Shown: in pieces, positions 22,319-56,985 of the stretch | Layout of the letters: each line of letters starts with the position of its first letter | Position numbering within the stretch: position 1 is the stretch's first letter | Origin: Escherichia phage alia | DNA length: 64,000 nt | Direction: 5' to 3' (one strand) | Sequence record: NC_052655.1 | Notes under the pieces: generated by a model | Databases searched by the model: none | What the model saw: the letters and a program-made list of their open reading frames with translations, nothing else | What the model was told of the DNA's origin: nothing | Position numbers and translations under genes: made by a program

Positions 22319-23296
22319 TTAAGCAACAGTCTGGTCTTCTTTTTCAGGGAAGATTAAACTTGCAACAACACCCAACCCAAGAGTACCTAACACAATATAC
22401 ATACTGATCGTCGGATCAATGTGTGCTGGCAGGAAACTCATTTTTGCGTGCAGAGTTTCTGCAAACGGGTGATACATCAGTTTTACACCCACAAATACCA
22501 GGACTACGATAACTGCTTTCTCCAGATGAACCAAATACTTCAGTGCAACACTAAGAACAAAGAACAGAGCACGTAAACCTAAGATTGCACAGAGCATCGA
22601 AGAGAACACCAGCAGAGGTTCTTGTGTCACTGCAATTACTGCTGGAACAGAGTCTACTGCAAAGATTACGTCAACCATTTCCATTACAAACACACAAACC
22701 AGAGCCGGAGTTGCTACACGAACACCATTCTTGATTGTGAAGAACTTCTCACCATCCATCTGATCAGATACAGGGAACAGCTTACGAACAATGCGAGTAG
22801 CCCAGTGTTTAGAGTAATCAACTTCTGCATCATTATCTCCAGCGAATACCATTTTAGCCGCACAGAAAAGGATGACAGCACCGAAGAAGATATTAACATA
22901 CCAGCCCAAACTCAACAAGTAAGTGCCTACTGCTACAAACACACCTCGGAAGACAATCGCACCTGCAATACCCCAAAGTAGAATTTTGTGCTGCAAGTGT
23001 GTGCTTTTAATACCAAAACTTGCGAAGACTGCCACAAATACTACTAAGTTATCTACAGAAAGAGATTTCTCCAACACATACCCACTCAAGAACAAGCTCG
23101 CAAAATCAGCACCGTGTTGGAAGTATACAAAACCATAGTAGGCTAATGATACCCCAATCCAGAAAATTGACCAACCAACTGCCGATTTAAATGAAATCTC
23201 TTTGTTTTCTCTGTGTCCAAAGAAATCAATACAAATCGACAAGACTAAAATACCCACTAAAACAACCACATCAATAATTGGGAAACCCAGTTGCAT
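22319..23296 (-). CDS. TerC-family integral membrane protein
   Basis: Multi-pass hydrophobic protein with 'LSVDNLVVFVAVF' and 'DVIFAVDSVPAVIAVT', the two signature motifs of TerC; AGGAGA RBS. Confidence 0.8.
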   Translation of the reverse strand: MQLGFPIIDVVVLVGILVLSICIDFFGHRENKEISFKSAVGWSIFWIGVSLAYYGFVYFQHGADFASLFLSGYVLEKSLSVDNLVVFVAVFASFGIKSTHLQHKILLWGIAGAIVFRGVFVAVGTYLLSLGWYVNIFFGAVILFCAAKMVFAGDNDAEVDYSKHWATRIVRKLFPVSDQMDGEKFFTIKNGVRVATPALVCVFVMEMVDVIFAVDSVPAVIAVTQEPLLVFSSMLCAILGLRALFFVLSVALKYLVHLEKAVIVVLVFVGVKLMYHPFAETLHAKMSFLPAHIDPTISMYIVLGTLGLGVVASLIFPEKEDQTVA

Positions 23297-23373
23297 TCTT
23301 TTCTCCTCTTTAATGCGGAGGACAATCCTCCGCTCTATGTCGTATACTATAAACTGTTTTTAAAGAAAGTCAA

Positions 23374-23622
23374 CTAGTTCAGTTCTGTAATTTTAAGTTT
23401 ATCTTCTTTGTTAATGATAGGGAAAGCTACAGCATCACCTACATCATCAATAAAGCAAATAGCAAGACCACCTTCCACTTTGCTAACCTGACCATTAAAG
23501 GCGTGATACGGGGCAGGAACAATATCTCCATCTTCAAGGAGAATAGCCTCATAAACCTTACCAATAGTACAATCACGAGTGTTTTTAAATTTTTCAAGCA
23601 CTTCAACATTTACTTTACGCAT
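23374..23622 (-). CDS. hypothetical protein
   Basis: 82-aa ORF. Confidence 0.4.
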   Translation of the reverse strand: MRKVNVEVLEKFKNTRDCTIGKVYEAILLEDGDIVPAPYHAFNGQVSKVEGGLAICFIDDVGDAVAFPIINKEDKLKITELN

Positions 23623-45191: not shown

Positions 45192-45208
45192 TTTTTATAG
45201 GTATGCGT

Positions 45209-45319: not shown

Positions 45320-45580
45320 AGAGAATAACGCGCAGGGGCGGTGTTTGTCTCGCGCTCCCGTGTCCCCTCGCCATACAATAAGAATAGCATAACCAACAAC
45401 AAAAGCAAGCGATTATTTTTATCTTTACATTTCTTTACAAATTTATTTTAGACGAGCTACCGGCGATCAACCTTCCAACCAGTGCCCCCTGGTATGTTAG
45501 CCCCGCCTTTACGCCGTGGGGGTGGCGCTTCCTCTTCTGTATGTAAAACAGTATAAGCCCGATCCCTGGGCTTGTCAAGA

Positions 45581-45847
45581 TTATTTTTTGTTTTCTTGCC
45601 AGGATAGGACACCTAACCAAAAATACATGTCGCCCCGCGCCCCTGGCGGGATCTTGCTTTCCCCGCCGCCACTGCAAGCCCATAGATAACCATTAGCGAA
45701 CGGATCAAAATGATCTATTTCTTCCACCTTATAATCGCCCAGGTTGAGAACGGTTTCAACCTTTAAGCCCGTTGCGCTTGCTACCTGGTGCACCGTGCCG
45801 CCTTGCCAGCCCAATGAGTGCATGAGATGTAAAGGAGTATTTGTCAT
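45581..45847 (-). CDS. candidate small ORF inside a GC-rich island
   Basis: 88-aa ORF ('MTNTPLHLMHSLGWQGGTVHQV...') in a clearly more GC-rich stretch (about 45330-46100); several overlapping minus-strand ORFs make the coding call uncertain. Confidence 0.3.
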   Translation of the reverse strand: MTNTPLHLMHSLGWQGGTVHQVASATGLKVETVLNLGDYKVEEIDHFDPFANGYLWACSGGGESKIPPGARGDMYFWLGVLSWQENKK

Positions 45848-46217
45848 GGTATCGCCCTTTCTTTGATGTGCGCCCTGGTTGGCGCGGTAGAAAGATAATA
45901 GCCGTTTCCTTTATAGATAGCAAGCAAAAAAGAAATGAAAAAAGATTAAAAAAATGGTTGACGTTCCTCACCTGGTAGCGTAGTATTCATCTTGTCGAGG
46001 GGGGCGAGGCACAACGACAATAAACAAAAGGAGGGCGCAATGTAGGACGGGCAAAGGTGAGGATCTCCACAATCCACCGTCACAATAACATTACTTATAA
46101 AAGGTTGATAACGATGATCAAGAAAGAAAACAGCTTGACGGTTGGAACGATTAACGCTATCATTCTTGCCGTTCCATTTTGGGTTGTAGTAGCGGTTATT
46201 ATTTTTAAAAAATATTC

Positions 46218-46275
46218 TTGACAACGTTTTTTAATCTGATAAGATGTATCACATAGGGCGGCAATAGTGCCGCTC
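46218..46275 (+). promoter_or_regulatory. promoter + 5' stem-loop module
   Basis: TTGACA-N16-TAAGAT followed by 'CACATAGGGCGGCAATAGTGCCGCTC' (stem GCGGCA/TGCCGC), 22 nt upstream of the ATG. Confidence 0.6.
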
Positions 46276-46297
46276 ATAACAGAAGAGAGAAATAATC

Positions 46298-46570
46298 ATG
46301 GCATCATATAGCGCATCAATGATTGTAATGGGTATCACTGGTAAACCTATGCGCGGTGGCGGATCTTTCGCTAATATTAATATTGATGGACGTTTATCCC
46401 TGGACGCAGCGATCACAGTGGCACGGGAAACGTTTAAAAAAGAATGTAATTTCAATAAACAAGATTATCTCGGCTTCGTTATTGAAAAAACCGCGCGCTT
46501 TGTTGATTATAAAAGCCCGAAAATGATCGACACTACACTAAAGGCGCAAGATGTAGCTTTTTTGCTTTAA
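46298..46570 (+). CDS. hypothetical small protein (cassette gene)
   Basis: 90 aa; RBS GAGAGA. Confidence 0.5.
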   Translation: MASYSASMIVMGITGKPMRGGGSFANINIDGRLSLDAAITVARETFKKECNFNKQDYLGFVIEKTARFVDYKSPKMIDTTLKAQDVAFLL

Positions 46571-46573
46571 GGC

Positions 46574-46633
46574 TTGACACTGAAAAATAATTTGGTAATA
46601 TATACCACATAAGGCGGGAAATGGTTTCCCGCC
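46574..46633 (+). promoter_or_regulatory. promoter + 5' stem-loop module
   Basis: TTGACA-N17-AATATA followed by 'GGCGGGAAATGGTTTCCCGCC' (9-bp stem). Confidence 0.6.
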
Positions 46634-46658
46634 AGGCCATCAAAGAAAGGGTAACACA

Positions 46659-47021
46659 ATGAGCAAGCAAATCAATACTATCATGTTAAACCTGGTATCT
46701 TTCCGCGACGACGTGAAAAATCTTCCACGTGATGCAGTGGATGCACGGATCGAAAGCTATCGCTCACAGATCGCAACGCTACCGCTAAAACGTGATCAAC
46801 ATGCCGCTAATATGATGCTTAATGCTATGCTTAAAAAGATGATTCAATGTGATCTTACTCTGGCTTATGAATATGCTGGCGATCTTTTTGTAACATATAA
46901 CAAGCCCGTTCCAGGTATGAGCACCACGGAAGAATTGCATGCCTTAAATCTGCGACAAGATGCATGGGATAACATGCGCCGTGTTATGGTATGGGTAGAA
47001 AGCGGTAAAATTTACGAATAA
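46659..47021 (+). CDS. hypothetical small protein (cassette gene)
   Basis: 120 aa; RBS AAAGGG. Confidence 0.5.
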   Translation: MSKQINTIMLNLVSFRDDVKNLPRDAVDARIESYRSQIATLPLKRDQHAANMMLNAMLKKMIQCDLTLAYEYAGDLFVTYNKPVPGMSTTEELHALNLRQDAWDNMRRVMVWVESGKIYE

Positions 47022-47027
47022 AAACGG

Positions 47028-47080
47028 TTGACATTGCACTAAAACCTGATAAGCTATCTTAAAGCGGGAATAGTTCCCGC
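47028..47080 (+). promoter_or_regulatory. promoter + 5' stem-loop module
   Basis: TTGACA-N16-TAAGCT followed by 'GCGGGAATAGTTCCCGC'. Confidence 0.55.
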
Positions 47081-47099
47081 TTACATAGGATAAAACTTT

Positions 47100-47246
47100 A
47101 TGAAACAATATGTAATGAGTATTCACACCAAAAACGGCGCTACTGTTACGACTCCGGCACGGTTTGCACTTGTAAACCGTTGCAAGAGACTAAAACGAGA
47201 GCTAAAAAACAACCGTGCAACGGGCTTTAAACGCTGGGGAGGATAA
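47100..47246 (+). CDS. hypothetical small basic protein
   Basis: 48-aa ORF (below track cutoff) directly after the module. Confidence 0.35.
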   Translation: MKQYVMSIHTKNGATVTTPARFALVNRCKRLKRELKNNRATGFKRWGG

Positions 47247-47248
47247 TC

Positions 47249-47521
47249 TTGTTTTTTCTAAAAGTTTTTGATAATGTGATCGCTTTTGAACATGCTGCAA
47301 CGTTCAACCTGGCGAGATACGCTATCAGGTTTAAAGATAATGTTTATCCCCGTGCTGGTGGCGGTTACACTATCTTTAATCATCGTAACGCTCAATTAAC
47401 GGATATAACGAATCCAGATCCTGGAGTGTATCGCATAGGTTGGCTACCGTCAAAAGACGCGGCAAGCATGTTTAAGGTGTGTAAACTACTAACAGAAGAG
47501 GCGAACGAACATGGGGCGTGA
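47249..47521 (+). CDS. hypothetical small protein
   Basis: 90 aa, TTG start, GGAGGA RBS 8 nt upstream. Confidence 0.45.
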   Translation: MFFLKVFDNVIAFEHAATFNLARYAIRFKDNVYPRAGGGYTIFNHRNAQLTDITNPDPGVYRIGWLPSKDAASMFKVCKLLTEEANEHGA

Positions 47522-48065
47522 ATATGTGATCCAGTCCTGGGTAAAGCATGATGCTGATGATCCGCGCATAATACCAGATGACATGATCGATCACATGGTA
47601 GGGTATAGCGGGGAGCAGATAGGAAATCGAGCGGCAAAGAGCAACGGCAACACAAAGGCGCGATCCGTTCGCCCTGGTTGGCTGGCAAATGGTAACGCTG
47701 ACATTGCAAGCGCCGCAGATCCAAGCGATGACGCTAAAACTAATCCCTTATACAGCATTGATCCGGCTTTTAAGGTGTTAGAAGAGTATCCCGCTAAATT
47801 AGCCGCACTAGATAAGGCATACGAAGAAAAGCGCATGGCATGGACTGTATACAACACCGCTAAAATGGTGCTAGATGCAAAATTGATTAAAGCCCAGGAG
47901 AAGATCAATAAACTTGTTACCATAGTGCAAGAGGAAGACCAGGACGACCAGGAGGAAGAGGAAGAAATCATGCCTAACCTGGAAGAGGAAGAGATCCAGC
48001 CATACATGCCGACGGAAGAGGAAAAAAGACAAGCCCTAAAAAATTATGAAAATTGTCTTGTGTAA
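47511..48065 (+). CDS. hypothetical protein with acidic low-complexity tail
   Basis: 184 aa; 'QEEDQDDQEEEEEIMPNLEEEEIQ'. Confidence 0.5.
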   Translation: MGREYVIQSWVKHDADDPRIIPDDMIDHMVGYSGEQIGNRAAKSNGNTKARSVRPGWLANGNADIASAADPSDDAKTNPLYSIDPAFKVLEEYPAKLAALDKAYEEKRMAWTVYNTAKMVLDAKLIKAQEKINKLVTIVQEEDQDDQEEEEEIMPNLEEEEIQPYMPTEEEKRQALKNYENCLV

Positions 48066-48068
48066 GGC

Positions 48069-48125
48069 TTGACATATGCAAACAAGCCCCGTAATATGTA
48101 CCACATAAAGCGGGGCAACGCCCCA
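48069..48125 (+). promoter_or_regulatory. promoter + 5' stem-loop module
   Basis: TTGACA-N17-TAATAT followed by hairpin 'GCGGGGCAACGCCCC'. Confidence 0.55.
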
Positions 48126-48147
48126 TAAGGTGAAATAAAAAAATCAC

Positions 48148-48175
48148 TTGACACCTGAAATCAGTAAGCTATAAT
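48148..48175 (+). promoter_or_regulatory. consensus sigma70 promoter (tandem, second)
   Basis: Perfect TTGACA-N16-TATAAT; no stem-loop. Confidence 0.6.
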
Positions 48176-48212
48176 GCTTATATAGATTGAAACATTACTA
48201 AGGAATAAAAGC

Positions 48213-48392
48213 ATGGCTATTATTGCAAAGACTGAGATCGTAGGTTTAGATTCTATCATCCTGGCATATGAGGAAGCTATAGAAATGTATGTGGTTTCCT
48301 ATGGTGATTATATCCGTGAATATAAATCTATTGATCTAGCTTTTGAATGTTATATTCGCCAGGTCAATAAAGCCTATGATGATTATCGTTAA
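48213..48392 (+). CDS. hypothetical small protein
   Basis: 59-aa ORF (just below track cutoff) downstream of the tandem promoters. Confidence 0.35.
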   Translation: MAIIAKTEIVGLDSIILAYEEAIEMYVVSYGDYIREYKSIDLAFECYIRQVNKAYDDYR

Positions 48393-48411
48393 AAGTTTTA
48401 GTCTTGTGCTA

Positions 48412-48440
48412 TTGACAACGAACGATAGTACAAGCATAAT
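48412..48440 (+). promoter_or_regulatory. sigma70-like promoter
   Basis: TTGACA-N17-CATAAT; no stem-loop. Confidence 0.5.
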
Positions 48441-48487
48441 AACTTTTATCGGGAATACTCCTAACTAATCAAAAGAGATTAAAGACT

Positions 48488-48853
48488 ATGGCTAAAAATA
48501 TCAATGTTTCTGCTTATGCTACCCTGGCTAACACTGCTAAAATTGAACTATCCAGCATTGAAGCGGTACATATTAGCGCCCGTCGCTGGTTTCAAAAGTC
48601 TTATGGTAATACTTATTTCTCTTTGATGGTTGACGTTGAGATCGGCGGTAAACTGATTGAAGTCGTTAACGTTCCGTTTCAATATGGTTATGGTGATCAT
48701 TTTGATACCGTTGCCCTAGAAGAGTTTAGCAAGGTTATCAACCTGGAAGGTAAAGACTTTTCAAATTATGCTTACCTTTCCCGTTTTTGCCGTGACAATG
48801 GGATCGCTGTATACAGTCATGCAAGCGATGTTAAACGTAAAAAAGATTTATAA
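48488..48853 (+). CDS. hypothetical small protein (cassette gene)
   Basis: 121 aa. Confidence 0.5.
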   Translation: MAKNINVSAYATLANTAKIELSSIEAVHISARRWFQKSYGNTYFSLMVDVEIGGKLIEVVNVPFQYGYGDHFDTVALEEFSKVINLEGKDFSNYAYLSRFCRDNGIAVYSHASDVKRKKDL

Positions 48854-48859
48854 AAAGCA

Positions 48860-48917
48860 TTGACAGCACGAATAAAAAGCATATAATACTTATATCGAGA
48901 GCGGGAATAGTTCCCGC
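48860..48917 (+). promoter_or_regulatory. promoter + 5' stem-loop module
   Basis: TTGACA-N16-TATAAT followed by 'GCGGGAATAGTTCCCGC'. Confidence 0.65.
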
Positions 48918-48941
48918 CTCACTGAAAAAGAGATTAACATC

Positions 48942-49181
48942 ATGGCTAAATCTAAAATGTACAACGGTCACAAAAATAAAACTCATTGGAATGTAAGCCT
49001 TTGGATCAACAACGATGAAGGTTTTTATAATCTTGCGCGTGAATTTATCGCAGCTAACACCAATAAGAATGACGCAGCGCGTGATATGATGTTATTTCTT
49101 GAAAGTATGGATCAAGATAAAACGCCAGACGGATTCAAGTTCAGTAAAACTGCAATCCGTGCCGCTATGGTTGGAATGTAA
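48942..49181 (+). CDS. hypothetical small protein (cassette gene)
   Basis: 79 aa. Confidence 0.5.
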   Translation: MAKSKMYNGHKNKTHWNVSLWINNDEGFYNLAREFIAANTNKNDAARDMMLFLESMDQDKTPDGFKFSKTAIRAAMVGM

Positions 49182-49194
49182 AGGAGACATAAAA

Positions 49195-49275
49195 ATGAAA
49201 CATCGTTCGACCTATCTGACAAAACGTTTTAGCTTAGATCATAAATTAGGCTATTACGGAAGAAATAGAAAATAA
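49195..49275 (+). CDS. hypothetical micro-ORF
   Basis: 26-aa ORF with a GGAGA RBS; may be non-coding. Confidence 0.2.
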   Translation: MKHRSTYLTKRFSLDHKLGYYGRNRK

Positions 49276-49276
49276 T

Positions 49277-49336
49277 TTGACAACGTTTAAAATTAGTGTA
49301 AGATGTATCACATAGGGCGGGAAATGGTTTCCCGCC
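49277..49336 (+). promoter_or_regulatory. promoter + 5' stem-loop module
   Basis: TTGACA-N16-TAAGAT followed by 'CACATAGGGCGGGAAATGGTTTCCCGCC'. Confidence 0.6.
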
Positions 49337-49358
49337 AAATCAAAGAAAGGTTATCATT

Positions 49359-49586
49359 ATGGCTATCGTTATTGTTCGCGTATCCGGTACGGTTGGGATC
49401 TCCCAGGTAGTAGCAGTTATCACCGAGAAGAAAGGAGATGATCTTCACTCCTCCTTGAATAGCTGGGCGGTCGCTAACTTTGGGCAATGGTCGAGCGTTG
49501 AGTACATCGAATCCTACCAGGTGCCAACGATTAGCCTAACCGATCTAAATGTTGATCGCTTGTTGTGCCTGGATCAATTAAACTAA
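49359..49586 (+). CDS. hypothetical small protein (cassette gene)
   Basis: 75 aa. Confidence 0.5.
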   Translation: MAIVIVRVSGTVGISQVVAVITEKKGDDLHSSLNSWAVANFGQWSSVEYIESYQVPTISLTDLNVDRLLCLDQLN

Positions 49587-49594
49587 AAATAATA

Positions 49595-49652
49595 TTGACA
49601 AGATAACTAAAATCAGTAAAATGTAATGCATAGGGCGGCAATAGTGCCGCTC
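49595..49652 (+). promoter_or_regulatory. promoter + 5' stem-loop module
   Basis: TTGACA-N16-TAAAAT followed by 'GCATAGGGCGGCAATAGTGCCGCTC'. Confidence 0.6.
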
Positions 49653-49673
49653 CTAGTGAGAGAGATTATCAAG

Positions 49674-49889
49674 ATGGCTAATATCCGCACACTGTTAAAA
49701 AATGCAAGTCAAGTTTTATTTTCAGATGACGAGTATTTCAACAAAGACATTACAGGCGTGAAAAATTTAAAAGACGTGAAGGATGTTATCGGTATCCGTG
49801 GATCTTTACGTAAAGGTGACATATACGGTAACAAGGTGCAATATAAACTGTCAAAAGATTATGATTTTACTTTGACATTTATTTCATAA
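49674..49889 (+). CDS. hypothetical small protein (cassette gene)
   Basis: Start at 'MANIRT' (track start 49626 lies inside the stem-loop). Confidence 0.5.
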   Translation: MANIRTLLKNASQVLFSDDEYFNKDITGVKNLKDVKDVIGIRGSLRKGDIYGNKVQYKLSKDYDFTLTFIS

Positions 49890-49895
49890 AACCGC

Positions 49896-49956
49896 TTGCA
49901 ATACTGCAAAAATAAAGTAAACTGTATTCATCAAGGCGGTGGAATAGCCCACCGCC
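49896..49956 (+). promoter_or_regulatory. promoter + 5' stem-loop module
   Basis: TTGCAA-N16-TAAACT followed by 'GGCGGTGGAATAGCCCACCGCC' (8-bp stem). Confidence 0.5.
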
Positions 49957-49979
49957 TAACAAAGAGAAGAGGAAACATC

Positions 49980-50150
49980 ATGATCACTTTCGCTACCCGT
50001 GAAGCCGCTCGCAACGTTGCACGTAAAGTTAACGCCGCCAACCTGGGCGCTACGCTTAAAGCCCCGGTAAAAGATGAATCAGGTAAATGGATCTTCCCTG
50101 GTCTGCGTCACGCTGATAAGCTGGGAACGTTAACGCTAAAAAATAAATAA
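49980..50150 (+). CDS. hypothetical small protein (cassette gene)
   Basis: 56 aa, start at 'MITFATRE' with a GAGGAAA RBS. Confidence 0.45.
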   Translation: MITFATREAARNVARKVNAANLGATLKAPVKDESGKWIFPGLRHADKLGTLTLKNK

Positions 50151-50157
50151 AATCCGC

Positions 50158-50216
50158 TTGACAGTAGCATCATTTATAAGTAAAGTAACAACAACGGCGG
50201 GAAATGGTTTCCCGCC
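50158..50216 (+). promoter_or_regulatory. promoter + 5' stem-loop module
   Basis: TTGACA-N17-TAAAGT followed by 'GGCGGGAAATGGTTTCCCGCC'. Confidence 0.6.
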
Positions 50217-50236
50217 ATCAATAAAGAGATAAGATC

Positions 50237-50596
50237 ATGAAATCAGTAAAAGCAATTAAAACTTACATTGTGTCGGCTATTTCTTTTGATGGTACTACAA
50301 CCGAAAAAGAAAAGATCACCGAACTGATGCGCCGTTTTAACTCTGAATACTGGTATCCCGATAATCAAAAACGTTACAATTATAACGTGATCAAGGCGAT
50401 AGCCTCATGGTTACAAGGTTTACCGTCAGAAATCAATATTGCTTTTGATTATAACGAGATCGATCACTTGTTAATTGAATGGAAGTACATAAAAGAAACA
50501 AGCAAAGAAACAACCGTTACCCGTGAGCGGGAAAATTATTGGTTATATATTGCAAGCATGATCGTAATCCTGGCAAAACAGCATAACGTGGCGTAA
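50237..50596 (+). CDS. hypothetical small protein (cassette gene)
   Basis: 119 aa. Confidence 0.5.
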   Translation: MKSVKAIKTYIVSAISFDGTTTEKEKITELMRRFNSEYWYPDNQKRYNYNVIKAIASWLQGLPSEINIAFDYNEIDHLLIEWKYIKETSKETTVTRERENYWLYIASMIVILAKQHNVA

Positions 50597-50611
50597 TTAA
50601 GAGGAAGAAAC

Positions 50612-50749
50612 ATGAACGCATCACAGCAGATCGAAAAATTCAACCGCAGCAAGGCGCGTAAAGATTGGAACGAAGAGATCACCAAAAAAGGCGACAAGCG
50701 GAACAAAACAAAGAGAGATCGCAGCACAAAAAGATACTGGAACGAATAA
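50612..50749 (+). CDS. hypothetical small Lys/Arg-rich protein
   Basis: 45-aa ORF with a GAGGAAGAAA RBS. Confidence 0.35.
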   Translation: MNASQQIEKFNRSKARKDWNEEITKKGDKRNKTKRDRSTKRYWNE

Positions 50750-50756
50750 CAAAAAA

Positions 50757-50777
50757 GGGCGCAATAAGCGCCCTTTT
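50757..50777 (+). terminator. intrinsic terminator (GGGCGC-aataa-GCGCCC-TTTT)
   Basis: Perfect 6-bp GC stem plus T-run. Confidence 0.6.
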
Positions 50778-50867
50778 AGCTTATATAGAGGCTTGTTACC
50801 CATAGGCAATGGTAACGCCAGGATAAGCCTATAAACCACGTTAGACAGCTTTACAGGAGCTTTAAAA

Positions 50868-51050
50868 ATGAAATTAGAAGAAATAAGCAAGGCACTAGCC
50901 CAGGGGCAAAGGTTAAACGCCCGTTATCGTGATCAATATGGCTTCATAACCAGCGGCGTGATCCTGGGGATTGAAGGCAATAAGATTTTTATTGACACGT
51001 TGAAAAACGTTGTATATAGTGACAATATAATCTCAATAAAACATATATGA
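50868..51050 (+). CDS. hypothetical small protein
   Basis: 60 aa; upstream hairpin 'GTTACC-cataggcaat-GGTAAC' near 50797. Confidence 0.45.
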   Translation: MKLEEISKALAQGQRLNARYRDQYGFITSGVILGIEGNKIFIDTLKNVVYSDNIISIKHI

Positions 51051-51058
51051 GGCAAGAA

Positions 51059-51460
51059 ATGAAAAAATTATTGATCGCTGGTTTAATCTCTTTTGGCATG
51101 GTTGGAACATCTAGCGCGGCGATATCCTCCACAGTAGCAGAATTAAGCGCCGTTGATGCAATGGAAAACGTCATGCTTATTAATAATGCGATCCCCGATG
51201 AAATCATGGAGGATTCACACATGATCGCTTATGGTGCTGTTACACAACTAACGGCAAAAATAGATAAATCTATTGCTAATGGCTTAAATGAAGATGTACC
51301 ATGTGAAATTATTACCAGTGTGCTAACGACTCAAAATTTTACGCCGTGGTTAAAAAGTATTCAAAAGGTACACAGCACCGCCGCAGATCGTAGCAATGAA
51401 AAACTGGTGTCAGCACTTGCAACGTATACCCTAGCAAAATGCACCGAAATAAAAGATTGA
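51059..51460 (+). CDS. hypothetical secreted protein
   Basis: Signal peptide 'MKKLLIAGLISFGMVGTSSAA'; start moved from 51047. Confidence 0.5.
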   Translation: MKKLLIAGLISFGMVGTSSAAISSTVAELSAVDAMENVMLINNAIPDEIMEDSHMIAYGAVTQLTAKIDKSIANGLNEDVPCEIITSVLTTQNFTPWLKSIQKVHSTAADRSNEKLVSALATYTLAKCTEIKD

Positions 51461-51484
51461 CAACATAGAAAGCACGTTATAAGA
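51458..51484 (+). promoter_or_regulatory. sigma70-like promoter
   Basis: TTGACA (overlapping the upstream stop)-N15-TATAAG; GGAGAA RBS follows. Confidence 0.35.
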
Positions 51485-51507
51485 TACACACAACAAAGGA
51501 GAACTAC

Positions 51508-51810
51508 ATGAACGGCATAGCTAAAACGTTTTTTCTTTTTTCTGGTGTAAATAATCCATCAATAAAAGTCGATAGTGTAAAAGAAAACAATACTATCACC
51601 GCTAAATTGTTTCAAGATGAAACAAATAACGTGCTAATCATTAATCTTAAAGAAATAACGAAAGGTTATTATACTATTGCTTACCATGCGATCTATCATG
51701 CGGGTACTAGTGAGGAAGTGCAAACAAGCAACAACGAAAGCGCGGCGCTACCTGGTGATCTGGTGCTGGGTGTTATCAGTTTAATTGTCAATGATTTTTT
51801 TAAGGAGTAA
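51508..51810 (+). CDS. hypothetical protein
   Basis: 100 aa. Confidence 0.45.
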   Translation: MNGIAKTFFLFSGVNNPSIKVDSVKENNTITAKLFQDETNNVLIINLKEITKGYYTIAYHAIYHAGTSEEVQTSNNESAALPGDLVLGVISLIVNDFFKE

Positions 51811-52068
51811 AACCATGCCCTATTTACATTTATTTTTCGGGATCTTATTGTCAGGATCTTTTTTCTTCTGTATACTTGTTTCTATTGTAAACCACGTTTT
51901 AAGACATTAAGGAAACAGCATGAAAATTATTCCCGTACAATATAGCGTAATAAATCCAGCATACGAGGAAGGAAGGAAAACAAGCATGGCTTTATGTTGT
52001 ATTGCTACTATAGCCATGTTGTTATGCATTGTGTTTTAATAGGTTTTATAGTTGTACGCTTTAAAGGC

Positions 52069-52097
52069 TTGACAATTTTTTGTTATGCTTTAAACTA
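52069..52097 (+). promoter_or_regulatory. sigma70-like promoter
   Basis: TTGACA-N17-AAACTA; weak -10. Confidence 0.35.
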
Positions 52098-52139
52098 TAT
52101 CTTGAAAACGGCAAAGGCCGCAAACAAAAGGGTAAAATT

Positions 52140-52463
52140 ATGAAATCTGTGATCGGTGTTTATTTGGATAACTCTGATTTTTTCTATCATCGTGCTCGTT
52201 TCCTTGATGCGATTGAAATGATAGAATCAGGCTTTAAAGAGTATCGCCTTGCACATGATGACCTGGAAGCATTACAGGGCAATAGTGTTTTTACATTGCA
52301 AGCTAAAGCACTATGCAAAAGCCGGATCGACATTGCGAGCAAAAAGATAGAACGCGGCATGTCCTGGTTACGCACCGCAGAAATCAACATGGGGCAATGG
52401 TACGGCGAAAACTTAGAAAATAAACATGCTTTTGTCAATGTAGAAAATATTGAAGATTATTGA
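52140..52463 (+). CDS. hypothetical small protein (cassette gene)
   Basis: Start at 'MKSVIGVY' (track start 52080). Confidence 0.45.
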   Translation: MKSVIGVYLDNSDFFYHRARFLDAIEMIESGFKEYRLAHDDLEALQGNSVFTLQAKALCKSRIDIASKKIERGMSWLRTAEINMGQWYGENLENKHAFVNVENIEDY

Positions 52464-52525
52464 TTGACAGCACACCTGATAAGGAGTATATTGTATCTCA
52501 TAGAGCGGGGAAATGGTTTCCCCGC
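52464..52525 (+). promoter_or_regulatory. promoter + 5' stem-loop module
   Basis: TTGACA-N17-TATATT followed by 'GCGGGGAAATGGTTTCCCCGC'. Confidence 0.6.
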
Positions 52526-52545
52526 CTTAACAGAAGAGATAAGAT

Positions 52546-52830
52546 ATGAAGATCACAAAAGCACTTTCCAACTATGCAGCACGTCGCGGATTATGCTTAT
52601 CCGTTGAAAACTTAGGGAAAGAAGATTTTTTGTGCTTTTGGGAGCTTGAGAATGATAATGAGTGGATCTTCTCTTATTCTATCTGCGAAGATCAAAACGG
52701 TTGTTTATTAACCTGGCGCGGTAATATCTATCTACCGGAAGAAATCAAAGAAGAATTGCCAGGCACGATCATGACTGAGAAACAGCTTAAGGAAGTGATT
52801 AATTTTGTAGGGCAAAACATTAAAAAATAA
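52546..52830 (+). CDS. hypothetical small protein (cassette gene)
   Basis: 94 aa. Confidence 0.5.
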   Translation: MKITKALSNYAARRGLCLSVENLGKEDFLCFWELENDNEWIFSYSICEDQNGCLLTWRGNIYLPEEIKEELPGTIMTEKQLKEVINFVGQNIKK

Positions 52831-52831
52831 T

Positions 52832-52891
52832 TTGACACTAGGCAAACAACGTAGTAAAGTTTATCACATAGGGCGGGAAATGGTTTCCCGC
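52832..52891 (+). promoter_or_regulatory. promoter + 5' stem-loop module
   Basis: TTGACA-N17-TAAAGT followed by 'CACATAGGGCGGGAAATGGTTTCCCGC'. Confidence 0.6.
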
Positions 52892-52914
52892 TCACAACAG
52901 AAGAGAAACACATC

Positions 52915-53085
52915 ATGATCCCGACTATGTTTTACGTATCGCGCAAAGGTCACAATATTTTTTGGTCTGAAGATTTAAATGAAGCCATGACGTTTGCCCG
53001 TGATCGTGTTGCTATCGGTGGCGTTAACATTACCGTAACCGATGAAAACGGCATTGAATACTATAACGGCGACGATGAAGAGTAA
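52915..53085 (+). CDS. hypothetical small protein
   Basis: 56-aa ORF (below track cutoff). Confidence 0.4.
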   Translation: MIPTMFYVSRKGHNIFWSEDLNEAMTFARDRVAIGGVNITVTDENGIEYYNGDDEE

Positions 53086-53092
53086 TTAATAA

Positions 53093-53113
53093 GGCGGGGG
53101 AGTATTCCCCGCC
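53093..53113 (+). promoter_or_regulatory. 5' stem-loop without an obvious -35/-10
   Basis: 'GGCGGGGGAGTATTCCCCGCC' 20 nt upstream of the next ATG. Confidence 0.4.
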
Positions 53114-53132
53114 GTCAATAAAGAGGTAAATC

Positions 53133-53402
53133 ATGAAAATATCTTTGGACGTTGCAATCAAGGCCATCGAATCCGGTTACACCCTGGTAAAAGATGATAA
53201 GGCTAAAACCGTGCACCACGTTAACAAGGAAACAGGCGAAAGCATGATCACATATAAAGCCGCCTACTTTCTCCAATCAGTAGCAGATCCGCGCGTACAA
53301 CGCCAGGTTACAGCGGCTATTGCTAAAAAATTATGTGCTTTACAGGGCACAAGTTTTAACGAGATCGCCCCGTGTTTTGACTGGTCGAGCTTGAAAAAAT
53401 AG
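53133..53402 (+). CDS. hypothetical small protein (cassette gene)
   Basis: 89 aa. Confidence 0.5.
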   Translation: MKISLDVAIKAIESGYTLVKDDKAKTVHHVNKETGESMITYKAAYFLQSVADPRVQRQVTAAIAKKLCALQGTSFNEIAPCFDWSSLKK

Positions 53403-53403
53403 T

Positions 53404-53461
53404 TTGACAACAATTATAAATCGGGTAGAATGTATTTCGTAGGGCGGCAATAGTGCCGCTC
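53404..53461 (+). promoter_or_regulatory. promoter + 5' stem-loop module
   Basis: TTGACA-N16-TAGAAT followed by 'GGGCGGCAATAGTGCCGCTC'. Confidence 0.6.
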
Positions 53462-53482
53462 ACAACTAAAAGAGAAATCAGC

Positions 53483-53677
53483 ATGGCGCTTAAAAAACTA
53501 ACAAGCAATACTCGTTGGGATGAAATCGACGGAGAAGTTTACATTTTCGCCCGTAAACCAGGTGATCAAAAATGGTCAAAGGCTTTTACTTGCCACCCTG
53601 CAACAATAGATCTAATAAAAAGTAAAGGTTTACGTGAAGCAGTAGCGAGAAGTTTACTGATCCCTTATAAAAAATAG
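53483..53677 (+). CDS. hypothetical small protein (cassette gene)
   Basis: Start at 'MALKKLTS' (track start 53453). Confidence 0.45.
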   Translation: MALKKLTSNTRWDEIDGEVYIFARKPGDQKWSKAFTCHPATIDLIKSKGLREAVARSLLIPYKK

Positions 53678-53678
53678 T

Positions 53679-53740
53679 TTGACAATATGCTGTTATCTGG
53701 TAAAGTGTACGACATAGGGCGGGGCAATAAGGCAACGCCC
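53679..53740 (+). promoter_or_regulatory. promoter + 5' stem-loop module (variant loop)
   Basis: TTGACA-N16-TAAAGT followed by 'GGGCG-gggcaataaggcaa-CGCCC'. Confidence 0.5.
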
Positions 53741-53758
53741 ATTAATGAGGGTAGAATC

Positions 53759-53863
53759 ATGTTAGAGAAAATTTTCACGGTTGTAATAGTGGGCCTGGCG
53801 TTATCGGTTGGATTGGTTGCAACTATGGCTAACATGATCCTATCTTCCCACGGTATTGGATAA
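53759..53863 (+). CDS. hypothetical hydrophobic micro-protein
   Basis: 34-aa ORF 'MLEKIFTVVIVGLALSVGLVATMANMILSSHGIG'. Confidence 0.3.
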   Translation: MLEKIFTVVIVGLALSVGLVATMANMILSSHGIG

Positions 53864-53873
53864 GGTGAATCAA

Positions 53874-54089
53874 ATGATCACGAATAAGACAGGTAAAACA
53901 GAATTTTTACGCGGCTTGCAAATAGGTAAACCTGAGATCTGGCATTGCACTAAATCCGCGCATAATGAAATGAAAGATTTTACCGCTACTTTACAACGTG
54001 TTAAAATATCTATCACACAGAAAAAAGCCTTGTTAGTAGTAGAAAACGAGATCCCGCAAACCATTATTATTGTCGAGCGTACAGCATGA
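53874..54089 (+). CDS. hypothetical small protein
   Basis: Start at 'MITNKTG' (track start 53856). Confidence 0.45.
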   Translation: MITNKTGKTEFLRGLQIGKPEIWHCTKSAHNEMKDFTATLQRVKISITQKKALLVVENEIPQTIIIVERTA

Positions 54090-54472
54090 AAACTGAAATC
54101 ATTAACGAAATGATCAACGGCTATAAAGAAGCCTTTATTTTTGCCGAACCAGCGACGGATCACAATGGGGAATATATTGAGAATCTAGACGATTATGATT
54201 TTTCTCCTAGCGCCCTGAAACGTATTACCAGCGATGTGACCGCCTTTTGTAGTGCCAATGTTGCCGCTATCTCTGAGGCAATGAGCGACGGCGCAACAGC
54301 AAACCAGATCGGGAATGACTTACATTTCACCCGTAACGGTCACGGCGTAGGCTTTTGGGATCGCCCTGAAATATACACTACTAACACCGCCAACCGCCTA
54401 ACAAATGCAGCTAAATTAATGCCATCGGTGCATGCTTACATTGGTGAAGATAATTTGATTTATATTGAATAA
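54086..54472 (+). CDS. hypothetical protein
   Basis: 128 aa; ATGA start/stop overlap. Confidence 0.5.
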   Translation: MKTEIINEMINGYKEAFIFAEPATDHNGEYIENLDDYDFSPSALKRITSDVTAFCSANVAAISEAMSDGATANQIGNDLHFTRNGHGVGFWDRPEIYTTNTANRLTNAAKLMPSVHAYIGEDNLIYIE

Positions 54473-54478
54473 AAAGTA

Positions 54479-54537
54479 TTGACACCGATCCCCAATATGG
54501 TATTATTTACCACGTAGGCGGGAAATGGTTTCCCGCC
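54479..54537 (+). promoter_or_regulatory. promoter + 5' stem-loop module
   Basis: TTGACA-N16-TATTAT followed by 'GGCGGGAAATGGTTTCCCGCC'. Confidence 0.6.
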
Positions 54538-54560
54538 AGGTAATCAAAAAGGTAAATACT

Positions 54561-54950
54561 ATGCGCAACCTGGTTTCTGTTTCTAACGTTGAAAAATTCC
54601 AATCTTTACAGGGTATCGTTAACAACGTAGCGCCTTTTTTAGTAAACGGCTTGATTGCAAAGATGAAAAATAAACATCATGCGGCATGGTCTGCTTATTG
54701 CTTTGATAATGATGAAAAAGCGGCTGAAATGATGTTAGATATGCTGTTAGATAGTGTAGAAACATCTTTACCGGAAAACATCGCAGAAGAGATCACCTAT
54801 CGTTATAATATGGCGATCACTTACCAGGAGGTTGCGCAATTCAACATGATGGATGATGACGAACAACAGGATCAAGAAATGTTTTGGGAGTATGCAGATC
54901 GTCAATCGGCTTTTGATGAAAAGTTAGCGATGTATTATAACGAATATTAA
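54561..54950 (+). CDS. hypothetical small acidic protein (cassette gene)
   Basis: Start at 'MRNLVSVS' (track start 54525). Confidence 0.5.
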   Translation: MRNLVSVSNVEKFQSLQGIVNNVAPFLVNGLIAKMKNKHHAAWSAYCFDNDEKAAEMMLDMLLDSVETSLPENIAEEITYRYNMAITYQEVAQFNMMDDDEQQDQEMFWEYADRQSAFDEKLAMYYNEY

Positions 54951-54967
54951 TACACGGTAAAAGAAAG

Positions 54968-54990
54968 GGGCGCACTAAGCGCCCTTTTTT
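54968..54990 (+). terminator. intrinsic terminator (GGGCGC-actaa-GCGCCC-TTTTTT)
   Basis: Same stem as the terminators at 50757 and 56137. Confidence 0.65.
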
Positions 54991-55335
54991 GTATTCTTTT
55001 TTCACGATGGAAACAACACGTAAAGAATAGGCGTAAAGGTGGCGTAAAACAGTCTAAAACCGATTATAACCGCTTAAACAAGGTAACAATGACTAATCAC
55101 CTTGCCAGGATGAAAAAGCTGTTAGAAAGCTGTTTAGAGCGTTTAAAGCACATAGGAAATAACTTGCTTTTTATCTTGCCTTTTATCCTGCTTTTGATTA
55201 TTATTATGGAACGGGCGGCACCTGGGGACAGGGGAAGATAATCACCGGAAGATCTTATCATATATTGATAGCTTCCCCCTATCAAACAACAAAACATTAA
55301 AGAGATAAACTATCAAATCTTTACAATCCTACCTA

Positions 55336-55364
55336 TTGACCGATAAATCACAACAGTTTAATAT
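55336..55364 (+). promoter_or_regulatory. sigma70-like promoter
   Basis: TTGACC-N17-TAATAT, about 48 nt upstream of the ATG at 55413. Confidence 0.4.
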
Positions 55365-55412
55365 TGTTTTTAGAGGTTAGAATATTCCCCAAACGAAAAC
55401 AGGAAAAAGAAA

Positions 55413-55649
55413 ATGAAAGAAGTCATGATCCTCAAAAAATCACCTATTTTACGTGGCGGTTTTATCGCTTACTCTGATGATCTGTTAATTGCAACAGTTG
55501 CAAAAATACTAAAATCAGAAGAGGATAGTAAAAACGGCGTTTATCGTATCTGTTTCACCCGTGGAAAATTACAAGGCAAGATCGCCTATGCCTTTGATTT
55601 ACAAGATGTAAATGATAAAATCTGCGCTGTTATTGATTATGCAAAATAA
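55413..55649 (+). CDS. hypothetical small protein
   Basis: 78 aa. Confidence 0.45.
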   Translation: MKEVMILKKSPILRGGFIAYSDDLLIATVAKILKSEEDSKNGVYRICFTRGKLQGKIAYAFDLQDVNDKICAVIDYAK

Positions 55650-55661
55650 TTAACTTTCTTA

Positions 55662-55690
55662 TTGACACCGGATCACGCTTACATTATTAT
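55662..55690 (+). promoter_or_regulatory. sigma70-like promoter
   Basis: TTGACA-N17-TATTAT; downstream 'CACGTAGGGCAAATC' looks like a degenerate copy of the stem-loop. Confidence 0.5.
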
Positions 55691-55736
55691 TTATCACGTA
55701 GGGCAAATCATTTTAAACGGTAAACGAGGAAACACC

Positions 55737-56120
55737 ATGAGCAATATCATCAACCTGGCGGCTACTGTAAACGGTAAAGATTTTAACGGCGCTGTAGATC
55801 GTGATCCTATGTGGTGCTTATCAGTGTTTAAAGGCGATCTGGTTGAAGTTAGAACAACCGAAGGGTATAGCGATGATTATAAATGCGAGATCCATTTACA
55901 TAACTGGTACACGGGTAAAACTTATGCGCTGAATCATGCGTTTATCGGGAAAATTGAATATCGCGAGATGATCGACGAAGAAACGGGGCAAGATTTTAGC
56001 GAGCATGTTTATATTCGTTCAGAAACATTAGCCGAACGTTTGATCGAGAAAATGAAAGCAAAAAATAAAATTAATTTATCTCATTGGATTGATATAACAA
56101 ACGATCCGGCTTATCAGTAA
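55737..56120 (+). CDS. hypothetical small protein (cassette gene)
   Basis: Start at 'MSNIINLA' (track start 55662) with a GAGGAAA RBS. Confidence 0.5.
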   Translation: MSNIINLAATVNGKDFNGAVDRDPMWCLSVFKGDLVEVRTTEGYSDDYKCEIHLHNWYTGKTYALNHAFIGKIEYREMIDEETGQDFSEHVYIRSETLAERLIEKMKAKNKINLSHWIDITNDPAYQ

Positions 56121-56136
56121 ATAACATTTCATACAA

Positions 56137-56162
56137 GGGCGCTTATTGCGCCCTTTCTTTTT
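56137..56162 (+). terminator. intrinsic terminator (GGGCGC-ttatt-GCGCCC-TTTCTTTTT)
   Basis: Third copy of the GGGCGC/GCGCCC stem; closes the cassette region. Confidence 0.65.
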
Positions 56163-56364
56163 ACCTAAATAAAGATGATAGCTTTTACCTATCAAAAACG
56201 TTCACCGAAAAAAGTGAATAGATCGCGGTATCGAGCTAATCAAGGAGCAGATGAACAACCATACCATGAAGATCATAAGGCGCTTACAGCGTGTTTTAGA
56301 CCGCTTATTTTTAATTTCTTCATGTAACTATCTGGCAAAAACAGCCTTTTTCTTGTCTTTCCTC

Positions 56365-56445
56365 TTAAATGATAATCATTCTTATTTATAGCTGATTATT
56401 TATGCAATAAACTGCATAATGCAATAATGATAATCATTCTTAACT
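56365..56445. promoter_or_regulatory. Fur-box-like repeats
   Basis: Two copies of 'AATGATAATCATTCTTA' separated by about 40 nt. Confidence 0.4.
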
Positions 56446-56819
56446 TAAGACCATCTAACTTATAAAATAATAAGTTATCTAACTAAATTAAAGCTAATTA
56501 TCTTACTTTTATTTATAACATACTGTTACTATCTTATTGATAACCTTATATTAAACAACAATAATCAATGTAAATCATTACTAAGCTAACTATAATCTAT
56601 CTAACCCTTAAAACTACAATTATAATCTATCAAATTGTTGCACAAAGTAACTATTAAATTGTTAGTAACATTGCTAAATAATTAATATCCTATCTATTTA
56701 TGATCTAATCTTTACCTCCCTATCTATTACCTAAATAACCATTTCATGTGGTAATCATTTCATACAATAACTATAACAAGAAATATAATTCGCAAGCGTA
56801 TCATTAGCAGCCTATGCCG

Positions 56820-56985
56820 GACACATAGGCGGCTAATAATAACGCAACTACACACCCCACATAATAACCATCACCGATAGTTATTATTTGTGCTTATGTA
56901 GCTTGCAACAATTGCAAGCGCAACAATATACATGGTATATTGTATCCCTTACATTGTTGCGGTGCGTTATTATTAGCTAATGTTT
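56820..56985. repeat. inverted repeats around a TTGCAA-caa-TTGCAA palindrome
   Basis: 'GCTAATAATAACGCA' with its reverse complement 'GCGTTATTATTAGC' about 130 nt away; central 'GCTTGCAA-caa-TTGCAAGC'; hairpin 'GCCTATG-ccggaca-CATAGGC'. Confidence 0.5.

Follow-up and report, generated by a model that had tools for sequence, protein, structure and literature searches.

Why would about 10 kb of a phage genome carry the same promoter and stem-loop again and again in front of small genes, and what could such a hairpin do at the beginning of so many transcripts? The question is raised by positions 46218-56162 of the DNA analyzed here, a 64,000-nucleotide (nt) stretch of Escherichia phage alia (NC_052655.1; hereafter the window), in which an earlier reading of the letters (the original prediction) had described an array of promoter and 5' stem-loop modules driving small genes. 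Our analysis supports the presence of such cassettes, in which a sigma-70-type promoter, a stem-loop, a leader and a ribosome-binding site (RBS) precede small genes of unknown function. Judging from the sequence, we consider it reasonably likely that they form a terminus-proximal array of early genes, built from repeated cassettes of ~85 bp, in which the hairpin would serve to stabilize and insulate the 5' end of the mRNA.

The first point to be settled is whether the array exceeds what chance would produce. A scan for exact promoters (TTGACA, a 16-17 nt spacer and TAnnnT) over 46000-56200 returned 18 sites on the + strand and one on the - strand, with ten such sites in the other 54 kb of the window, both strands together, and a chance level of 0.14 +/- 0.39 when the region was shuffled 500 times with its dinucleotides preserved. 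In 11/18 of these promoters, the -10 hexamer is followed after 6-16 nt by a GC-rich stem of 6 bp or more, compared with 0.002 in the shuffles. The predicted array of promoters and hairpins therefore exists, well beyond chance, on both counts. A lenient scan for generic promoters showed weak enrichment (48 vs 31), the signal residing in the near-consensus sites, and approximately 21 near-consensus promoters of host type are present in the 10-kb stretch. By reading the sequence and searching it with a covariance model (CM), we tallied 14 promoter plus hairpin modules (-35 hexamers starting at 46218, 46574, 47028, 48069, 48860, 49277, 49595, 49896, 50158, 52464, 52832, 53404, 53679, and 54479), one promoterless hairpin, one truncated hairpin, six promoters without a comparable hairpin (48148, 48412, 50992, 51457, 52069, which has a 4-bp stem only, and 55336) and three canonical terminators (Table 1). 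Of the "about 15 modules" first announced, 14 thus have both promoter and hairpin, the further hairpins being the promoterless and the truncated one.

The cassette has a constant anatomy. In the alignment of the modules, the promoter is preceded by an A-rich UP-like tract in which the upstream stop codon lies, and the -10 hexamer is followed by a conserved GUAUCACAUAG-like start segment (..CACAUAG). The stem opens with (G)GCGG and closes with CCGC(C), its inner part being often GGAA/UUCC and its loop often AAU(A/G)G, and it gives way to a purine-rich leader with a Shine-Dalgarno sequence (SD) of the AAGAG or AAAGG type and an ATG that is frequently ATGGCU. In every module the hairpin starts 8-14 nt past the -10 hexamer, and it should therefore be transcribed from the promoter of its own cassette. 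Two details of the original prediction had to be revised. The 20-25 nt placed between hairpin and RBS do not hold, since 19-28 nt already reach the start codon and the SD starts ~8-12 nt past the hairpin; and the three hairpin variants are only the commonest of at least seven, with type A present three times, type B four times plus two derivatives, type C twice, and singletons at 49934, 53093, 53717, and 48112. The predicted 5' untranslated regions fold into the hairpin alone, with -13 to -19 kcal/mol and z scores of -2.9 to -4.9, leaving the SD and the AUG open; the weakest fold is that of the orphan module at 48069 (-8.7 kcal/mol, z -1.8). If transcription starts 7-8 nt past the -10, as assumed for the predicted starts, the unpaired 5' tail measures 2-7 nt, commonly 3-5. 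The loop of the type B hairpin (AAAUGG; 49324, 54525) contains an AUG, and translation from the one at 54525 would extend the downstream gene in frame (141 vs 129 aa); since the hairpin buries it and it lacks an SD, this AUG is probably a coincidence.

The three GGGCGC/GCGCCC terminators expected in the array are present at 50753-50777, 54962-54990, and 56135-56155, and they differ from the module hairpins in having A/T-run flanks. A GC-rich hairpin directly followed by a U-tract, which defines an intrinsic terminator, is not what the modules contain: on the gene (+) strand their hairpins run into the purine-rich leader with no U-tract, and T-runs occur only at 50753, 54962, and 56135.

The hairpin is also specific to these cassettes. 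A CM built from ten window hairpins on a hand-given structure was used to scan the window and the complete 149-kb genome of the related phage ESCO8. In the window it found 15 array sites and one isolated full module (23294-23385, - strand), and in ESCO8 the family likewise comprised the array plus one isolated copy; no further match at E < 0.01 was obtained in either sequence, and two marginal ones lay above E 0.01. Scores on the sense strand were far above those on the antisense strand. No copy was located by the model away from a promoter or RBS except the intercistronic hairpin at 53093, which keeps its leader and RBS, and the hairpins found elsewhere in the window and in ESCO8 are others, mostly terminators of the AAAGCCCC..GGGGCUUU type. 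A hairpin common genome-wide without promoters had been named beforehand as the result that would speak against the array; what the scan revealed is a motif confined to the array and one isolated module. A BLAST search with a module gave no match in 5,426 E. coli genomes, which speaks against a host origin or a repetitive extragenic palindromic (REP)-like element. Against Rfam 15 no match reached the gathering score, and the three sub-threshold matches are at chance level, none of them on a module hairpin.

What is conserved in the stem is structure and not sequence. In a set of 39 distinct sense-strand sequences from five phage genera, standard pairs occupied 92.7% of cells, six of the nine pairs showed changes on both sides (35 cells), and all five covariation measures exceeded those of 498-500 out of 500 column shuffles and of every slid register. 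RNAalifold applied to a MAFFT alignment of whole modules returned no structure, as differing stem lengths shift the 3' arms out of register. The variety of the family is evident from 51 distinct promoter-associated hairpins, whose stems include GGCGGC/GCCGCC, GCGGGG/CCCCGC, GGCGGUGG/CCACCGCC, GCGGAGGA/UCCUCCGC, GUGGGG/CCCCAC, GGGGAG/CUCCCC, AGGGG/CCCCU, and GGGGCAA/UUGCCCC. Exact inversion of the loop between orthologues, with the stems unchanged, was observed for TAG vs CTA (47062-47082 vs position 72430 of the ESCO8 record) and for ATAG vs CTAT (PD114). The loop sequence is therefore dispensable, and such inversions are the signature expected of palindrome-templated strand switching.

The same layout reaches well beyond this phage. 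Modules of similar sequence occur, several per genome, in 155 phage records of the Stephanstirmvirinae and Vequintavirinae. The Vequintavirus FV3 has six promoter plus hairpin modules in 18 kb, the promoter and leader-hairpin layout is also present in the Vequintavirus naswa, and the jumbo Asteriusvirus G17, which has homologues of the 120-aa and the 79-aa protein encoded in the window, has at least 18 such modules within ~17 kb (~1.8-19 kb of its record, - strand). In G17 the promoter is conserved as TTG(C/A)(A/C)A-16-TATAAT, ..UUUACAUCAA, with 32 near-invariant nt (GUACUUGCAAACUAUGUUUAAAAGCGUAUAAU), and the hairpin begins 10-14 nt past the -10, its stems (GGGGAG, AGGGG, GAGGGG) being unlike those of the window. 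Across FV3, naswa and G17 the offset remains constant at 9-14 nt with different stems. This constancy of position despite divergent stems is the strongest argument that position and structure would be what matters. The exact type-B hairpin word was found in only two IMG/VR contigs, both of the same phage group, a result uninformative on distribution.

The cassettes are, in addition, the places where close relatives differ from each other. When 45500-56700 was aligned with six Justusliebigvirus relatives, 22 of the 28 unique indel or replacement breakpoints fell inside modules, which account for 21% of the sequence length (binomial P ~1e-10), and two further ones lay within a few nt of a module edge; at several events the junctions overlap by 15, 61, 71 or 85 nt of module sequence. 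At the 55662 site, ESCO8 has a full hairpin and one gene more, and this additional gene is bordered by a 15-nt repeat of 55688-55702 (the -10/CACGUAGG segment). An inserted gene of BME3 is flanked by a 71-nt repeat of module 48860. The loss of two genes in phi92, located between modules 52832 and 53404, has left a junction overlap of 85 nt. In BME3 a lost gene has left only its module behind, like orphan 48069, and a deletion fuses the leftmost promoter (45958) with the 46256 hairpin. Three phages have breakpoints in common at the -35 of promoter 55336. At site 52832, a B/A chimera is found here vs a pure type A hairpin in the orthologous ESCO8 site, a visible case of gene conversion. The proposal that the variants recur and are exchanged between sites is borne out by this chimera, and the alignments show the cassettes to be the preferred sites of gene deletion, insertion, replacement, and conversion among related phages. 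Exchange may reach further still. The interval 48201-48394, which holds the 59-aa gene with its SD and no promoter, shares 92-94% DNA identity with Vequintavirus phages that are otherwise far more distant, and in naswa the counterpart of this gene stands behind a full module with the hairpin GGGGCAACAAGCCCC, which suggests a recent transfer of a single gene between genera. The 79-aa gene (48942) and part of its module are 78% identical to jumbo phage G17.

Which role could the hairpin have at such a position? E. coli mRNAs are stabilized by 5' secondary structure because RppH and RNase E need single-stranded 5' ends (PMC3997798), and for this reason the hairpin is proposed here as a 5' stabilizer and insulator. 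Host RNA polymerase with sigma-70 would start at the conserved C-A ~7-8 nt past the -10, so that each early mRNA would begin with 2-7 unpaired nt and then a hairpin of -13 to -19 kcal/mol. Such a 5'-proximal hairpin would hinder 5'-end-dependent decay (RppH, then RNase E) and insulate each short mRNA from its context, while within read-through transcripts a protected boundary would lie at the hairpin between one cistron and the next, an idea that the promoterless hairpin at 53093, preceded by UAAUUAAUAA, fits. Termination would be left to the three canonical terminators. Recombination, shuffling the small genes, would also find 15-85 bp of homology in the repeated cassettes, either as a by-product or as a selected property, as proposed for the promoter early stem-loops (PeSLs) of T4-type phages. 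An arrangement similar to the predicted one is found in the 5' stem-loops of ompA and papA, where a stable hairpin near the 5' end is followed by an unstructured leader and the RBS (Emory, Bouvet and Belasco 1992, reviewed in PMC3997798), the ompA-type hairpin acting by blocking access of RppH and of the RNase E 5' sensor (PMC3997798). Unlike these single cellular genes, the array consists of a repeated, exchangeable module on ~15 phage genes, and the 5' tail predicted for it, commonly 3-5 nt, slightly exceeds the limit classically regarded as protective.

Several points weigh against stabilization and insulation as the role of the hairpin. The start sites were predicted from the position of the -10 only, and a tail of 2-7 nt is at or beyond the length said to allow access of RppH and RNase E; protection may thus be partial. 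Six promoters in the array lack a comparable hairpin. The covariation values are inflated both by the relatedness of the paralogues and by an alignment fitted to the model, and the count of G.U vs A.C (12 to 8) is not significant and does not tell the selected strand, so that a role as a palindrome at the DNA level is possible. Finally, a stem-loop without a U-tract from a T4-type PeSL cut downstream expression as much as rrnB T1 (PMC2839356), and attenuation is therefore conceivable. Other known hairpin functions were considered and set aside. The stems are far shorter than the ~20 bp of RNase III sites; the architecture differs from that of lambda nut boxB or HK022 put, with one copy per promoter in the array; unlike the hairpin promoters of N4, the modules have a complete sigma-70 promoter, with the hairpin further downstream; and the hairpin excludes both SD and AUG, unlike a translational operator.

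The PeSLs had been named in the original prediction as the system that the array resembles. Reported for T4-type phages (RB49/phi1, PST/T4, nt-1/KVP40; Arbiol et al. 2010, PMC2839356; Comeau et al. 2014, PMC4122927), they comprise a sigma-70-like promoter, an AT-rich upstream tract, a GC-rich stem-loop, an SD and an ATG, lie next to ORFans, mediate recombination, and have been proposed to act as terminators or attenuators of transcription coming from upstream (PMC2839356; PMC4122927). Encapsidated mini-circles arising by recombination of neighboring cassettes are a further PeSL trait. The likeness is considerable: the array is likewise made of a repeated intergenic cassette of ~70-100 bp, with an A-rich tract that includes the upstream stop codon, a sigma-70-like early promoter, a GC-rich stem-loop, an SD and an ATG; it is located in a variable region of small ORFans, matched to PHROG families of unknown function; and indel and replacement breakpoints between close relatives lie in the cassettes. 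The position of the stem-loop is where the two part. Five positions are described for the stem-loop of the PeSLs, all at or upstream of the start site (in the AT-rich tract, over the -35, in the -35/-10 spacer, over the -10, or just before the start; PMC2839356), and in the phi1 genome we found it in the promoter spacer or across the -10 in 14/17 intergenic regions from two variable-gene stretches, the other three being two regions with the stem-loop upstream of the promoter and one promoter with no stem-loop. In the array, by contrast, it lies 8-14 nt downstream of the -10, in the leader of the cassette itself and without a U-tract, and the phage belongs to an unrelated lineage (Stephanstirmvirinae, with a family A polymerase). 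The resemblance consequently stands for composition, variable region and recombination behavior, and fails for stem-loop position. The array is PeSL-like in its evolution and, since the phi1 stem-loop sits within the promoter and this one downstream of it, a different anatomical variant.

It could still be held that the modules are PeSLs in the strict sense, with stem-loops that attenuate or terminate transcription from the upstream cassette so that each gene depends on its own promoter only. Composite cassettes in a variable, recombining region of small ORFans match the published description (PMC2839356; PMC4122927), a PeSL stem-loop with no obvious U-tract was a strong terminator in a lacZ assay (PMC2839356), and the automatic annotation of phage Paula (LR865361) calls several module hairpins "terminator". 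These labels, however, are on the strand opposite to the genes, and the phi1 geometry, in the spacer or across the -10, is never seen in the array. A terminator downstream of the predicted start would moreover be self-defeating, aborting the transcripts of its own cassette at ~+25, while the hairpins lack a U-tract and canonical terminators are provided at three places where termination is evidently wanted. We regard this account as unlikely.

The broad distribution of the layout admits a more general reading, rather unlikely in our estimation, in which the hairpin is an "early-transcript tag" common to otherwise unrelated large virulent coliphages (phi92-like, rV5-like and Asteriusvirus phages) and read by specific machinery, the offset being a functional requirement and not a matter of descent, and the cassettes moving between lineages as units. 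RNA polymerase at promoter escape, an evaded host pathway of RNA decay or RNA sensing, or a phage early-shut-off factor may, for example, be involved.

Lower still we rate the chances that the hairpin, as RNA or as DNA palindrome, is bound by a dedicated factor that co-regulates early transcripts, for instance in an early-to-middle shut-off. A host protein or an early protein of the phage could play this part, as could an antiterminator, a nuclease or a repressor. The promoter offset fixed across three phage lineages would agree with this, as would the conserved outer GCGG/CCGC pairs and GGGAA/UUCCC stem top, the loops that are frequently AAU(A/G)G, and the restriction of the family to one temporal gene class. 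A sequence-specific binder is nonetheless unlikely with at least seven stems in one genome and different ones again in G17; orthologues tolerate loop inversions without apparent harm, and neither an Rfam match nor an RNA-binding candidate among the array genes (PHROG and Pfam scans) points to one. Very improbable is a selfish or neutral palindromic repeat (REP-like, similar to a miniature inverted-repeat transposable element, or a recombination scar) hitch-hiking on the promoter cassette with no function in expression: loop inversions and chimeras do indicate active palindrome dynamics, six promoters work without a hairpin, and GC-rich palindromes preceded by (G/A)UAG recall REP elements, but pairing is kept by compensatory changes, lineages with hardly any stem sequence in common have the hairpin at the same position, the E. 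coli genomes gave zero matches, and copies occur only at promoters and RBSs, bar the one intercistronic site that keeps leader and RBS.

Arrays of early or host-takeover genes beside the terminal repeats are known from large virulent phages such as SPO1 and T5. The array of this phage is similar to those in having many strong host-type promoters, each with a few small genes of unknown function, near the genome end, as is also the case of the jumbo phage CBB, in which RpoD-like promoters with UP elements precede short open reading frames (ORFs; PMC5259590). Within the literature searched, none of the arrays of SPO1, T5 and CBB is described as having a conserved, transcribed hairpin built into the promoter cassette.

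Parts of the cassette had already been flagged in database records. In phAPEC8 (NC_020079), the sigma-70 sites are annotated as host-dependent promoters, and the 20-mer GTAGGGCGGCAATGGTGCCG that immediately follows carries the label "putative promoter determined with PHIRE", the hairpin repeat being annotated in this way at 556-575, 937-956, 1787-1806, and 3202-3221. The same 20-mer and the hairpins were thus picked up automatically in the phAPEC8 and Paula records, and were not recognized as a leader hairpin joined to the sigma-70 promoter upstream; both the "PHIRE promoter" and the antisense "terminator" labels look mistaken. The phi92 record annotates RBSs only, and the rV5 paper only lists 33 promoters and 20 terminators. 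In the literature searched, neither a study of transcription starts or of leader hairpins in phi92-, rV5- or 121Q-like phages nor a description of a promoter-leader-hairpin cassette in these groups was found.

If the interpretation is correct, shuffling of the PeSL type would no longer be limited to T4-like phages but would include at least three further groups of large coliphages found in phage therapy collections, and it would explain why near-identical isolates differ gene by gene in their early arrays. The placement of the hairpin, unlike that of the T4 type, predicts another job, namely protecting or insulating its own mRNA and not stopping that of a neighbor. The array also defines a natural expression cassette of small size, in which a strong promoter and a 5' hairpin are combined with an open RBS; the GenBank labels of the repeat could be corrected, and the ~30 small uncharacterized genes become candidates for screens of host takeover and anti-defense.

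Over its whole length, 46218-56162 is 95-97% identical to Justusliebigvirus genomes (phi92-like myoviruses of ~146-150 kb), and only patchy similarity to Phapecoctavirus and Vequintavirus was detected. The family A polymerase attributed to this phage was confirmed by a PF00476 match. In phi92, the counterpart of the array is formed by genes gp225-gp248, directly before the right direct terminal repeat of the record, which lies ~1.1 kb past the last array gene. In the window, the array is followed by a 1.8-kb AT-rich (32% GC) non-coding stretch (56160-57940). Given the place of the phi92 repeat, the physical genome terminus is probably within this stretch, so that the window spans the genome end.

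The array serves ~30 small ORFs, several of them in short operons, and not the roughly 26 first counted; nor is nearly every one of them behind a module, because a hairpin directly precedes only about half. All but three of the 29 proteins scanned matched PHROG families, and all but one of these families are of unknown function, the exception being a 39-aa membrane peptide in the category "moron/host takeover". Pfam thresholds were passed only by DUF7249 (gene 48942) and Phage_30_8 (gene 55737), other matches falling below the curated cut-offs, and the PHROG and Pfam scans yielded no RNA-binding candidate among the proteins of the array. From the position of these genes and the type of their promoters, early expression and roles in host takeover are plausible.

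Table 1. Features of the array and its surroundings in the window. Hairpin letters denote sequence types; MFE, minimum free energy (kcal/mol); z, folding z score; CM, covariance model.
Feature	Position	Strand	Hairpin	Gene and remarks
Leftmost array promoter, TTGACG-17-TAGTAT	45958..45986	+	no family hairpin	precedes 31-aa ORF, ~46115-46210
Module 1, TTGACA-16-TAAGAT	46218..46300	+	A, 46256-46275 (GGGCGGCAAUAGUGCCGCUC); MFE -14.4, z -3.7	leader, ATG 46298, 90-aa gene to 46570
Module 2, TTGACA-16-TAATAT	46574..46661	+	B, 46613-46633 (GGCGGGAAAUGGUUUCCCGCC)	ATG 46659, 120 aa; homologues in rV5-like phages and jumbo Asteriusvirus
Module 3, TTGACA-16-TAAGCT	47028..47102	+	C, 47062-47082	ATG 47100; heads three-gene operon 47100-48065
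Module 4 (orphan), TTGACA-17-TAATAT	48069..48147	+	5 bp, 48112-48124; CM E 0.06	no ORF; abuts next promoter, giving tandem promoters
Promoter only, TTGACA-16-TATAAT (consensus match 12/12)	48148..48215	+		ATG 48213, 59 aa
Promoter, TTGACA-17-CATAAT	48412..48490	+	degenerate C remnant only	ATG 48488, 121 aa
Module 7, TTGACA-16-TATAAT	48860..48944	+	C, 48901-48917	ATG 48942, 79 aa, DUF7249
Module 8, TTGACA-16-TAAGAT	49277..49361	+	B, 49316-49336; best CM match, 51.9 bits	ATG 49359, 75 aa
Module 9, TTGACA-16-TAAAAT	49595..49676	+	A, 49633-49652	ATG 49674, 71 aa
Module 10, TTGCAA-17-TAAACT	49896..49982	+	D, 49934-49957 (GGCGGUGG/CCACCGCC, compensatory variant); MFE -18.7, z -4.9	ATG 49980, 56 aa
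Module 11, TTGACA-17-TAAAGT	50158..50239	+	B, 50196-50216	ATG 50237, 119 aa, then 45 aa
Intrinsic terminator 1, canonical	50753..50777	+	AAAAGGGCGC-AAUAA-GCGCCCUUUU	
Promoter only, TTGACA-17-TATAGT	50992..51070	+		inside preceding 60-aa ORF; drives 130-aa signal-peptide protein
Promoter only, TTGACA-17-TAAGAT	51457..51510	+		short leader, ATG 51508, 100 aa, then two tiny membrane ORFs
Promoter, TTGACA-16-TAAACT	52069..52142	+	4-bp stem only (CGGCAAAGGCCG)	ATG 52140, 107 aa
Module 15, TTGACA-17-TATATT	52464..52548	+	B2, 52505-52525 (GCGGGGAAA/UUUCCCCGC, compensatory variant)	ATG 52546, 94 aa
Module 16, TTGACA-17-TAAAGT	52832..52917	+	B/A chimera, 52871-52893	ATG 52915, 56 aa
Promoterless hairpin, leader and RBS	53093..53135	+	GGCGGGGGAGUAUUCCCCGCC, 53093-53113; MFE -17.3	between two co-transcribed genes; ATG 53133, 89 aa
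Module 18, TTGACA-16-TAGAAT	53404..53485	+	A, 53442-53461	ATG 53483, 64 aa
Module 19, TTGACA-16-TAAAGT	53679..53762	+	F, interrupted, 53717-53740; CM E 0.06, MFE -16.8, z -4.3	ATG 53759, 34-aa membrane peptide, then two more genes, to 54472
Module 20, TTGACA-16-TATTAT	54479..54563	+	B, 54517-54537	ATG 54561, 129 aa
Intrinsic terminator 2, canonical	54962..54990	+		
Promoter only, TTGACC-17-TAATAT	55336..55415	+		ATG 55413, 78 aa; -35 is a recurrent recombination breakpoint (55340)
Module 22	55662..55739	+	truncated (..CACGUAGGGC|AAAUC..)	ATG 55737, 127 aa, T4 gp30.8 family
Intrinsic terminator 3, canonical	56135..56155	+		end of array
Isolated full module outside array, TTGACT-16-TATAGT, ..GACAUAGA	23294..23385	-	GCGGAGGAUUGUCCUCCGC, 23333-23315; 42.4 bits, z -3.9	leader, ATG

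Both flanks of the array carry clusters of palindromes (AATGATAATCATTATC; 45208-45299, 56368-56441, 57280-57301, and 57477-57495) that resemble Fur boxes of the E. coli consensus. With up to three mismatches allowed, 23 matches were counted vs 1.9 expected, and the one at 57283 is exact in 16/16 positions; control by host iron regulation, or titration of a factor near the genome end, is possible. Beside these palindromes, in the non-coding gap upstream of the array, direct repeats of 67 bp (..UAUUUAAAGUUUUU..UUUUGAAAAUGAAAA.UUCAA..) occupy 44983-45113, with a further partial copy to ~45200, and look like iterons or origin-like repeats.

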